Shown: piece by piece, positions 14,534 through 16,330 of the stretch | Layout of the letters: every line of letters starts with the position of its first letter | Numbering within the stretch: the first letter of the stretch is position 1 | Virus record (IMG/VR): IMGVR_UViG_2541047715_000004 | Origin: a virus | Lineage: Duplodnaviria; Heunggongvirae; Uroviricota; Caudoviricetes | Reading direction: 5' to 3' (one strand) | DNA length: 64,000 nt | Program-made: the position numbers and the translations under genes | The notes under the pieces: generated by a model | What the model saw: only the letters and a program-made list of their open reading frames with translations | What the model was told of the DNA's origin: nothing | Databases searched by the model: none

Positions 14534-14824
14534 ATGAGCAATTTAACTTCTTGGGAATGGTGGTTGGCCACCTATTTCTTAGCGGCCGGAGTCGCATTCG
14601 CCTTTTACGTAGGTCAGTTAGTCGTAAAACTGTTGCTGATTAAATTTGCTAGTCATAAACGTATCGATGATGGTCTGTGGCGTCTTGGCACCCTAGTGGA
14701 AACTCGCTACGGGCAACTTAAGGAGAACGAAACCATTACTATCCAAGCGAAACGATTCACTGCCACCATTACAAGAACACCTAGTCGTAGAGTGGCCTTG
14801 ATCAAAAAAGTCACAACCGAATAA
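14534..14824 (+). CDS. small membrane protein
   Basis: 96 aa; N-terminal TM helix; two shorter unlisted ORFs (about 14009..14188 and 14412..14537) have similar hydrophobic N-termini and RxYRxVE-like tails. Confidence 0.35.
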   Translation: MSNLTSWEWWLATYFLAAGVAFAFYVGQLVVKLLLIKFASHKRIDDGLWRLGTLVETRYGQLKENETITIQAKRFTATITRTPSRRVALIKKVTTE

Positions 14825-15602
14825 AAACATATTGATAAGTATTTACTTACTTATCTTTTGTGTATAAGATGACTTTGTTTTCGTTGAGACGCGACTGTTT
14901 GAACTTAAATACAAGTGCAAACGAAGAAGTCTATCTGGCAGTAGCCTAATAAGCCAAACACCAGCGAGGTCAGTTTCCAGCCTCGTTACCGAAATGGGAC
15001 ACACTGAGCGAGTGTGATTGCAGAACGCAGGAGGGAACATTCATGTTCCCTCCGATGAAGTAACAGAATGGGCGGTTGGTATATTTTCAACTCCATATGA
15101 CTCCCGGATTCTTAGCCACTGACCGCCCATCCTGTTACGTCATTTTGTTCAATTATGTCGTTTATACTGGGTTAAAAAGCGGCGACGTAGCCCGGCTGGT
15201 ATGGTTAGCCAGCACACAACGTTGAGGCCATTACATTTTTATCAATTCTAAGGTTCTATTCACAGAGATACCGGCGAGCGTTGATATGTAACATGTTGGG
15301 CAAACATTCAATCGGAGTAGTGGCCTCAACGTTGTGAAGACGGGATTGTTGTGTAGGTTTAACCACTGTTGCCATTGGTGCCTGTTTTCACAACAAATGA
15401 TTCCATACATCACATTGTATAAATTACAAAGTAGGTGCTGTCCTCAGAAACATCATCTACTTAAAGATTTTGCCTTCTACTATTGAGCGAAGTCGAAAGC
15501 GTCTGGCACTAACGAAAAGTGCAAGTAGCGGTGCGTTTCCTGGCAGAAACTAAACCGTCGCGATTGGCACTGTTGAGTAATAAATACTGGCAGTGCTGAA
15601 TT

Positions 15603-15677
15603 GATGGTGTAGCTCAGCGGTAGAGCAGTTGGCTGTTAACCAACTGGTCGGTGGTTCGAATCCACCCACCATCGCCA
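15603..15677 (+). tRNA. tRNA-Asn (GTT)
   Basis: Cloverleaf by eye: acceptor GATGGTG/CACCATC, D stem GCTC/GAGC, anticodon loop CTGTTAA, T loop TTCGAAT, CCA end. Confidence 0.8.
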
Positions 15678-15682
15678 ATTTA

Positions 15683-15769
15683 GGGGAGTTAGTCCGTAGA
15701 GGTAGCGGTGTAGACTGTAAATCTACTGTCATTGCGACTCGGGTGGTTCGACTCCATCACTCCCCACCA
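15683..15769 (+). tRNA. tRNA-Tyr (GTA), long variable arm
   Basis: Acceptor GGGGAGT/ACTCCCC, anticodon stem GTAGA/TCTAC with loop CTGTAAA, T loop TTCGACT, CCA end; D arm atypical. Confidence 0.65.
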
Positions 15770-15773
15770 AATT

Positions 15774-15849
15774 GCCGGTTTAGCTCAGTTGGTAGAGCGC
15801 CTGCCTTGTAAGCAGGATGTCAGCGGTTCGAGTCCGTTAACCGGCACCA
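15774..15849 (+). tRNA. tRNA-Thr (TGT)
   Basis: Acceptor GCCGGTT/AACCGGC, D stem GCTC/GAGC, anticodon stem CCTGC/GCAGG with loop CTTGTAA, T loop TTCGAGT, CCA end. Confidence 0.8.
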
Positions 15850-16076
15850 ACACAACAGGAAAGAGCATTGAAAACCGCCGAGACTGCCCTGTTTTAAGCG
15901 TAAGTCCGTGCAAACGTCATACAGTGCTCTTTTCGTTGTGGTTGATGCGCAGACTGATGCGCGGAAAGAAATGCCCCAGCGACACACGAGGCGAGTTCAC
16001 ACACTGCAATGCAGTCAGTAGCCGGGGTCGCTAAGCCGGAGATCAGTACCGGTAACCACAACAATTGGAGAGTAGG

Positions 16077-16163
16077 GAGCATGGTGCTCAAGCGGTCTTG
16101 AAAACCGTCCCATTGCGCAAGCGATGATGGTTCGATTCCATTACTCTCCGCCAGACACAGCGT
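16077..16163 (+). tRNA. tRNA-Ser (TGA), long variable arm
   Basis: Acceptor GGAGAGT/ACTCTCC, anticodon stem GCGGT/ACCGT with loop CTTGAAA, T loop TTCGATT, CCA end. Confidence 0.6.
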
Positions 16164-16307
16164 TGAGCGGTTTGGCCTTTTAATCACCCAGATTAAGACT
16201 CCGCTAACATAAACCAGACCGCTCAACGCTGTGATAGACAATTACGGCAGACGTTCTTAACCATAGCTTGCTAACATCCTAGCAACACTTTTTTCAGCGC
16301 AAAATTC

Positions 16308-16330
16308 AAAGGGGCTTCGGCCCCTTTTTT
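16308..16330 (+). terminator. rho-independent terminator after tRNA cluster
   Basis: GGGGC-TTCG-GCCCC hairpin followed by TTTTTT. Confidence 0.8.

Follow-up and report, generated by a model that had tools for sequence, protein, structure and literature searches.

A predicted tmRNA-derived phage RNA without a tRNA-like domain carries a leader complementary to host tmRNA

Ribosome rescue in bacteria relies universally on tmRNA and SmpB, whose influence on phage growth, as with lambda-immP22 and Mu, has been recognised for a long time. Two-piece tmRNAs, found in alpha-proteobacteria and other groups, show that the tag template can function without a covalent bond to the acceptor domain, to which it is held by base pairing only, and the first tmRNA pseudoknot (PK1) is replaceable by a simple helix. 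Some phages bear a tmRNA-related gene beside large tRNA sets, among them mycobacteriophages and Streptomyces BE-cluster phages, whose tmRNA genes have reportedly been announced as complete. Prophages of enterohaemorrhagic Escherichia coli encode the sponges AgvB and AsxR, anti-small-RNAs (anti-sRNAs) that pair with abundant host non-coding RNA and neutralise it, and the tRNA regions of phages also house structured non-coding RNAs such as T4 species 1 and 2 (rnaC, rnaD), GOLLD and ROOL. We know of no phage factor that acts on tmRNA itself, and a full-text literature search gave none. Here we analysed a 64,000-nt stretch of a Caudoviricetes genome (IMG/VR record IMGVR_UViG_2541047715_000004, hereafter the window), in which the flank of a tRNA cluster is predicted to encode an RNA of ~340 nt (about 14877-15213) that joins a tmRNA-like tag template to a leader antisense to host tmRNA, and that appears to be a new kind of phage RNA.

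Sequence comparison placed the window among SSU5/pHCM2-type phage-plasmids, with 100% identity across the region to E. coli plasmid NZ_CP019013 and 97-98% to Escherichia phages CMS-2020a and Cyrano; in SSU5, pHCM2 and Yersinia pestis pMT1 identity is ~84% over the first 400 nt. The region is kept in relatives from Salmonella, Klebsiella, Cronobacter, Citrobacter and Enterobacter, as well as in Y. pestis pMT1. A preliminary description, made from the letters of the window alone, had found no credible open reading frame (ORF) before tRNA-Asn. This holds for protein genes, with only ORFs of ≤65 amino acids (aa) present, no annotated coding sequence (CDS) in this interval of SSU5, Cyrano or pHCM2, and 1-2-nt frame-breaking indels there in relatives, but it misses a conserved 10-codon tag ORF that stands in the following series of features.

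14842-14870, + strand: sigma-70-like promoter, read from the sequence, with -35 TTTACT (14842-47), a 17-nt spacer and -10 TAAGAT (14865-70)
14877-14900, + strand: 5′ leader with box A GTTTTCGTTG (14877-86) and box B GCGACTGTTT (14891-14900), located by RNAduplex and local alignment
14907-14916, + strand: resume-codon context AAATACAAGT, which in most relatives is AAAGATAAAT or AAATATAACT, with U-5 and A-4
14917-14949, + strand: tag-template ORF GCA AAC GAA GAA GTC TAT CTG GCA GTA GCC TAA, encoding ANEEVYLAVA* without a start codon; a second TAA follows at 14950-52
14965-14999, + strand: H-type pseudoknot PK-A, with S1 CGAGG (14965-69)/CCTCG (14981-85) and S2 TTCCA (14975-79)/TGGGA (14995-99)
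15000-15016, + strand: hairpin CACACT/AGTGTG, equal to S1 of a second pseudoknot (PK-B) in other phage types
15153-15213, + strand: helix TTATGTC (15153-59)/GACGTAG (15184-90) and a terminal 6-bp hairpin GCTGGT (15195-15200)/GCCAGC (15208-13), from RNAalifold

The -35 block TAAGTATTTACTTA is invariant and the -10 box is TAAGAT or TATGAT across all relatives, a conserved pair that places the predicted 5′ end at ~14877. The window promoter matches 8 of 12 consensus positions, under the scan cut-off of 9/12, and phages wV8 and KP591P3 have a near-consensus promoter, TTGACA-17-TATAGT/TAGATT, at the same place. Among 39 unique variants of the tag ORF, codons 3, 8 and 10 differ at the third position only, codon 6 is Tyr or Phe (TAY/TTY), and the stop is spelled TAA (36), TAG (2) or TGA (1) with the next triplet free; the tags of relatives, such as ANEDTYLAVA and ANDNQYLAVA, follow the general form AN..[Y/F]LAVA. 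As judged from these substitutions, the predicted tag ORF is shown to be under coding-type constraint. Positions U-5 and A-4, kept in 38 of the 39 variants, correspond to U85 and A86, which set the reading frame on E. coli tmRNA (PMC2481249). Relatives carry 1- and 2-nt indels just upstream of GCA, which indicates that the frame starts at GCA, like a tmRNA resume codon, with no read-in from upstream. Two overlapping frames were rejected as genes: a 29-aa ORF (14860-14949) is not conserved upstream of GCA, and the +2 frame (xTG CAA ACG ... TAG) has non-synonymous changes where those of the tag frame are synonymous.

Both helices of PK-A covary across phages, S1 appearing as CGAGG/CCTCG, TGAGG/CCTCA, CAAGG/CCTTG or CAGGG/CCCTG, and S2 as CCGA/TCGG, CCAG/CTGG, CCAA/TTGG, TTCCA/TGGGA or CTCCA/TGGAG. 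PK-B has six covarying versions of its S1 stem, with 6/6 pairs formed in each. Its loop-to-downstream helix is GCCC/GGGC, GCCCAC/GTGGGC, GCCCTGA/TCAGGGC or GGCGGGAG/CTCCCGCC in non-SSU5 types and GCG/CGC only in the window type, where PK-B is weak rather than clear. In relatives of the L024 type homology stops after ...GCCAGCAC, and the 3′ end of the core RNA is likely to lie at the terminal hairpin (15208-15213). The possibility that flanking cassette arms close the tag module over a long range was rejected, because arm variants match only their local partner.

These features liken the predicted RNA to tmRNA, with which it shares a startless tag ORF beginning GCA AAC GA., an A-rich upstream context with U-5/A-4, a stop followed by H-type pseudoknots, and sequence similarity over the tag/PK2 region. 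We compared it with SsrA (Rfam RF00023) and the two-piece families RF01849, RF01850, RF01851 and RF04321. Rfam E-value scans gave weak tmRNA-family matches at 14825-15000, exactly on the tag and pseudoknot (the beta_tmRNA model aligning on PK-A), all below threshold, with 14.9-22.7 bits for tmRNA_permuted (gathering threshold 47) and 14.4-17.3 bits for beta_tmRNA (threshold 84); the phage RNA scores 11-29 bits where gathering thresholds are at least 47. A tRNA-like domain (acceptor stem with G3:U70, T-arm, 3′ CCA) was not found by ARAGORN at its default, 90% or 80% thresholds, and at 70% only spurious overlapping calls appeared, on both strands. Across all 64 kb the Rfam E-value scan found no tRNA-like piece besides four tRNAs, and gathering and E-value thresholds together returned only tRNAs, a cspA 5′ untranslated region (5′UTR) elsewhere and the sub-threshold tmRNA matches. 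PK1 is likewise absent, its columns being empty in a MAFFT alignment to E. coli ssrA and only ~40 nt separating the predicted 5′ end from GCA. The tag-template RNA predicted here is a tmRNA-derived RNA without a tRNA-like domain, and not a tmRNA, from which it also differs in having an extra 5′ domain antisense to ssrA and a tag that ends in LAVA, not LAA.

Could the alanine-accepting piece of an autonomous, non-canonical (two-piece) tmRNA be encoded elsewhere, or come from one of the tRNA-like cassettes described below? Two-piece tmRNAs exist (Rfam has alpha, beta, cyano and permuted families), some cassettes contain T-arms, and ARAGORN calls a 'permuted tmRNA' in phage Moogle. The genome announcement of Moogle lists an 'ssrA' from this program (PMC4319497), but the call proved to be an artefact that borrows pieces of genuine neighbouring tRNAs. 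The 64-kb window holds no acceptor/T-arm partner with G3:U70, SSU5 has only tRNA-Asn and HK620 has no tRNA, and at the predicted 5′ end there is no space in which an acceptor strand could lie; upstream of the RNA come a 96-aa CDS and then the promoter, with no acceptor piece, which is not a two-piece or permuted layout. We give the two-piece explanation only a slim chance. An unannotated, D-arm-poor tRNA-like sequence in wV8 (L011 1702-1785; Rfam tRNA model, 31.7 bits), with a UCU anticodon, G3:U70 and A73, lies 120 nt past the tag module; it was rejected as a tmRNA partner, being a decayed tRNA-Arg(UCU) that is intact in Moogle, where a normal tRNA-Arg occupies the same position (L014 1731-1807). 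The presence of the tag module in Felix O1-like phages explains the sporadic odd ARAGORN 'tmRNA' genes there.

The leader that precedes the template is complementary to host tmRNA. Its invariant 5′ motif GUUUUCGU is perfectly complementary to ACGAAAAC, host tag codons 3-5, and all 14 leader types align collinearly to one site of reverse-complemented E. coli ssrA (53-106 in lambdoid and Klebsiella types, 80-106 in Felix O1 types, 82-104 in the window), with an antisense stretch that spans the host resume codon and with alignment scores equalled by 0-1 of 500 shuffles for Felix, lambdoid and KP types. The RNAduplex optimum falls on the same ssrA site for 13 of the 14 types, with dG -36.5 to -49 and z -2.4 to -5.2 for lambdoid and KP types and dG -23 to -30 and z -1.7 to -2.7 for Felix O1 and L082 types, while in the window 14876-14901 pairs with E. 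coli ssrA 81-105 through two 10-bp helices (dG -26.3). Box A, which lies within a few nt of the predicted 5′ end, forms a helix of at least 9 bp with host ssrA in 81 of 87 unique leaders, against 13 of 87 with the phage's own tag, and box B pairs with host ssrA (at least 10 bp) in 41 of 87, against 3 of 87 with its own site (at least 8 bp); at -4 to -1 and in codons 3-5 the phage's own sequence has diverged, precisely at the positions where leader and host pair. On these predicted pairings, complementarity to the host ssrA site is conserved above pairing with the phage's own sequence for the family, and in the window subtype alone it is short and not significant.

The 27-nt ssrA target, AAAATAGTCGCAAACGACGAAAACTAC, recurs without change in the genomes of at least 120 species from Enterobacterales, Vibrionales, Aeromonadales and other gamma-proteobacteria, a conservation that accounts for the invariance of the boxes. 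A few matches to it on tiny contigs of unrelated taxa (Streptomyces, Flavihumibacter, Siminovitchia) look like contamination, and for a variant of box A in L174, GTTTTCAT, no genome with a matching ssrA variant was found. Two other origins or partners of the leader were considered and rejected. Homology to the tmRNA 5′ D-loop/P2a region, suggested by MAFFT, scores lower than the antisense alignment in 13 of 14 types (the exception being L004), and in Felix, lambdoid and KP types the antisense alignment is also longer and collinear; outside the SSU5 subtype, the leader pairs less strongly with the tag of its own module, and at a site that is not the homologous one.

We propose tentatively, regarding it as close to an even call, that the flank is a phage RNA operon whose first product, the tmRNA-derived RNA without a tRNA-like domain, anneals through its leader to host tmRNA and so blocks or replaces its tag template. 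In its fuller form, which we consider possible with more doubt than confidence, a guide-plus-template RNA of many enterobacterial phages and phage-plasmids would dock on host tmRNA, and rescued proteins would receive AAN..[Y/F]LAVA instead of the ClpXP degron AANDENYALAA. The leader would anneal just 3′ of PK1, in lambdoid types also unfolding PK1, and would mask the host resume codon and first tag codons. The single-stranded resume context and template of the phage RNA would then begin 10-15 nt away from that end of the duplex which looks towards the host tRNA-like domain and PK1; in E. coli tmRNA, PK1 and the resume codon are 11 nt apart. The tag added at ribosomes rescued by host Ala-tmRNA/SmpB would in that case be the one encoded by the phage, with ...YALAA turned into ...YLAVA, which would alter the ClpX-binding end of the tag and keep its SspB-binding AAN[DE]..[Y/F] part; at a minimum, host tagging would be blocked. 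Such a docking geometry is conceivable given the two-piece tmRNAs and the replaceable PK1. The proposed pairing of phage RNA and host tmRNA follows the logic of the two-piece tmRNAs, in which, however, a single gene gives rise to both pieces and the 5′ acceptor strand belongs to the coding piece, whereas here the partner would be the complete tmRNA of the host, contacted at its template region.

Several points weigh against this proposal. Data on a transcript, on its 5′ or 3′ end, on the interaction and on tagged proteins were looked for and not found, we know of no precedent for the use of a base-paired foreign template by tmRNA, and the helicase activity of the ribosome might unwind a duplex of 10-20 bp. 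In the SSU5 subtype, to which the window belongs, the pairing amounts to only two A/U-rich helices of ~10 bp, the window duplex having z -1.7 (9/200 shuffles) and an alignment score reached by 59/500 shuffles, values that are not significant alone; other 30-mers of the window give stronger raw duplex energies with ssrA, and box A of this subtype pairs almost as well with its own tag start. Part of the tag (CTG, GTA) was fixed by the patterns used to gather the sequence sets, and relatedness among many of their members means that the counts are not independent.

The same antisense evidence would serve a pure inhibitor or sponge, in which the leader pairs with host tmRNA and either blocks its template or triggers cleavage of it, and the tag-like part is an untranslated decoy for factors that bind the mRNA-like domain of tmRNA (S1, RNase R, the SmpB tail). 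Duplexes of 20-45 bp are of a size for RNase III, and lambdoid copies lie in a highly expressed late leader, both of which suit such a role. It leaves unexplained the codon-like variation, the stop kept in three spellings and the U-5/A-4 context, and we regard it as unlikely, if still worth reckoning with.

Blastn and pattern scans located the module in phages that are not related to one another, where its place is invariably a tRNA cluster or the late leader from Q to holin. It sits inside the tRNA array of Felix O1-like myoviruses, between Q/qut and holin in HK620 and other lambdoid prophages, and upstream of the tRNAs in 46-49-kb Klebsiella and Aeromonas siphoviruses, and it is also present on Salmonella Typhi pHCM2 and Y. 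pestis pMT1. IMG/VR has it in at least 120 contigs; among 5,426 complete E. coli genomes, 258 contain SSU5-type copies and 137 lambdoid late-leader copies, unannotated in both cases. Among the Felix O1-like, Salmonella and Klebsiella phages that are in use for therapy or have been proposed for it, carriers number in the hundreds. As far as such comparisons reach, our analysis suggests that many enterobacterial phages may tamper with host ribosome-rescue tagging.

Long-stem hairpin cassettes usually come after the module. In lambdoid and Klebsiella types it continues without a gap as one or several cassettes built as ACAACAGGTAAGAGCATT-[50-110 nt]-AGTGCTCTTTCCGTTGTGG, followed by small hairpins and a CA-rich linker, an arrangement seen in HK620, KP591P3 and pIS4-A. 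The spacer between tRNA-Thr and tRNA-Ser in the window is one such cassette, homologous to the sequence directly 3′ of tag modules in lambdoid-type contigs (87.5% over 112 nt with L048; 80% over 135-142 nt with L033 and L076), which makes the spacer and the 5′ flank parts of one modular RNA system. In some cassettes, namely those of KP591P3 (L012 1635-1733), L019 and L123, a T-arm (GAGGGTTCGAGTCCCTT or GGGTTCGAATCCC) is stacked on the long stem, forming tRNA-like minihelices without a free CCA end. The stems, cassettes and tRNAs of the window are as follows.

15030-15053, + strand: perfect 11-bp hairpin I10, dG -17.9 kcal/mol, z -5.7
15055-15143, + strand: long stem I1 with 22-nt arms and a 45-nt variable loop, dG -34.6 kcal/mol, z -5.1
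15215-15336, + strand: long hairpin I2 with 20-nt arms and an 82-nt loop, an optional add-on, dG -47.8 kcal/mol, z -6.8
15331-15394, + strand: hairpin I7, GTTGTGAAGACGGG/CCTGTTTTCACAAC, z -3.3
15603-15677, + strand: tRNA-Asn(GTT), by ARAGORN and Rfam
15683-15769, + strand: tRNA-Tyr(GTA), by ARAGORN and Rfam
15774-15849, + strand: tRNA-Thr(TGT), by ARAGORN and Rfam
15846-15948, + strand: cassette hairpin I4 of the Thr-Ser spacer, ACACAACAGGAAAGAGCATTG...CAGTGCTCTTTTCGTTGTGGT, dG -35.7 kcal/mol, z -5.2
15846-16062, + strand: Thr-Ser spacer, consisting of I4, hairpins GCGCA/TGCGC (15947-62) and GCCGG/CCGGT (16035-53), and a CA-rich linker CCACAAC
16067-16153, + strand: tRNA-Ser(TGA), by ARAGORN
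16156-16233, + strand: hairpin I3 directly after the last tRNA, dG -41.2 kcal/mol, z -11.1
16311-16330, + strand: intrinsic terminator GGGGC-TTCG-GCCCC-TTTTTT, read from the sequence

All four tRNA genes (Asn, Tyr, Thr, Ser) were confirmed by ARAGORN, and the five stem-loops of the preliminary description are real, with z scores of -5.1 to -11.1, none of 200 dinucleotide shuffles folding as well for any of them in RNAfold, and the same arms returned by a repeat search. Three details needed correction: the stem at about 15060-15138, given as a perfect 17 bp, has one A.C mismatch and belongs to a 22-nt arm of 91% complementarity, the 19-bp inverted repeat of the spacer is imperfect with a bulged A, and the last 19-bp stem lies at 16156-16233 instead of 16167-16242. 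No terminator-like site was found on the + strand between the promoter (14842-14870) and the terminator at 16311, which makes co-transcription of the stems with the tRNAs plausible.

Covariation in the stems, examined in 47 unique SSU5-type sequences, bears out selection for pairing, with 25 of 90 RNAalifold pairs changing on both sides, in I10, I1, I2, the terminal 6-bp hairpin and the pseudoknot stems. Compensatory changes fall at four pairs of I10 (GC19/UA15, AU32/GC11, GC32/AU12, GC33/AU11), at two of I1 (AU44/GC3, GC43/AU3), which also has many GC-to-GU exchanges, at two of I2 (GC28/AU15, GC29/AU12) and at one of the terminal hairpin (GC44/AU3). I3 always follows the last tRNA of the cluster, which is tRNA-Asn in SSU5, pHCM2 and Citrobacter relatives, and it shows two compensatory changes there, CGTTGAGCGG/CCGCTCAACG versus CGCTGAACGG/CCGTTCAGCG. 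Non-Watson-Crick positions in 86 long hairpins comprise 52 G.U and 22 A.C, counted with a hairpin detection that is symmetric for both strands, and this excess of G.U points to selection on the transcribed + strand.

The hairpins also come and go as indels. L113 and the L024-type relatives lack precisely the I2 segment, and phage Cyrano lacks both tRNA-Tyr and the Thr-Ser spacer. In L113 the deletion, relative to 15215-15336 of the window, runs exactly between the AACGTTG words of the two arms, which suggests that I2 may be lost or gained by recombination at palindromic arm ends. Such behaviour, together with arms that have the common termini CACAAC...GTTGTG, would fit elements acting at the DNA level, whether cruciforms, linkers for recombination or MITE-like insertions by which tRNA cassettes are shuffled from phage to phage; the strand-asymmetric G.U excess, the compensatory changes that preserve pairing despite sequence drift, and the constant orientation relative to promoter and tRNAs speak against them, and we regard this explanation as highly improbable. 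By comparison with relatives, the hairpins are best described as accessory parts or optional add-ons of the predicted tmRNA-derived RNA, and the long perfect stems I2, I3 and I4 would most likely act as processing or stability modules of a polycistronic RNA, for example as RNase III-type substrates.

The gain and loss of cassettes between close relatives also bears on a plainer account, in which the region consists of processed stable RNAs or processing spacers of the tRNA operon, the tmRNA-like stretch is a piece of ssrA that was captured and plays no part in trans-translation, and the only task of the stems is to guide RNase III, E or P or to protect tRNA precursors. The region is co-linear with the tRNAs, long perfect stems flank them, and some cassettes, such as that of KP591P3 with its T-arm, contain decayed tRNA-like parts. 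However, the tag frame, stop, pseudoknot covariation and antisense boxes persist in Felix O1-like, lambdoid, SSU5-like and Klebsiella phages alike, which they would not do in a neutral relic, and HK620 has the module but no tRNA, so that we think it decidedly unlikely that tRNA processing is the whole explanation.

The preliminary description had suggested that the structured flanks may be processed small RNAs, co-transcribed with the tRNAs, like those of T4-type tRNA regions. Selection of the stems as RNA on the + strand, seen in the compensatory changes and the G.U excess, and plausible co-transcription uphold part of this; nothing ties the stems to T4 species 1 and 2 RNAs, no non-tRNA family reached threshold in an Rfam scan of the region, and the dominant feature, the tmRNA-derived RNA, had been overlooked. 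Two sRNAs reported from RNA-seq for Y. pestis pMT1 (PMC3770706) map outside this region.

Other observations concern the arms and the neighbourhood. The heptamer CGTTGAG occurs three times, in the leader (14883-14889) and in the 5′ arms of I2 (15220-15226) and I3 (16161-16167), and the arms of I2, I3 and I4 have a common start, CACA[AG]C, and a common end, G[CT]TGTG. The I4 insert begins with TTGAAAACCG (15868-15877), which equals anticodon-arm sequence of the adjacent tRNA-Ser(TGA) (16098-16107) and hints that cassette inserts may derive from tRNA pieces. In pMT1 (L003 2495-3020) homology to the tag RNA and I2 stops directly after the I2 hairpin, where the caf1R-caf1M-caf1A F1-capsule locus starts, which implies that the capsule island replaces the segment holding tRNA-Asn in SSU5 and pHCM2. 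The 96-aa ORF directly upstream of the flank (14534-14824, + strand) has a hydrophobic stretch at its start and bears the RefSeq label 'C-type natriuretic protein' in SSU5 and several plasmids, which is implausible for a small phage protein. At 27978-28396 on the - strand a full-length match to the cspA thermoregulator 5′UTR (Rfam RF01766, 185.7 bits) indicates that the phage-plasmid carries a cspA-type cold-shock gene with its RNA thermometer.

Set beside the described systems, the predicted RNA resembles the complete tmRNA genes of mycobacteriophages and Streptomyces BE-cluster phages, compared here by their announcements, in being a phage-borne tmRNA-related gene near tRNAs, and differs in lacking the tRNA-like domain. 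Like AgvB and AsxR it would pair with an abundant host non-coding RNA, but its proposed target is tmRNA, not an Hfq sRNA, it carries a surrogate template, and it has no Rfam match. With T4 species 1 and 2, GOLLD and ROOL it shares the character of a structured, probably co-transcribed non-coding RNA in a phage tRNA region, and it has no sequence or Rfam similarity to those RNAs, which are without a tag template or an anti-tmRNA segment. A full-text literature search found no described tmRNA-like RNA without a tRNA-like domain and no anti-tmRNA RNA. The module is common yet unannotated, and the hypothesis is directly testable. If it is true, the joining of a surrogate tag template to an anchor that is antisense to the 27 most conserved nt of gamma-proteobacterial tmRNA would be a new viral rewriting of the host quality-control code, and phages would be taking over the ribosome-rescue and quality-control tag of their hosts.

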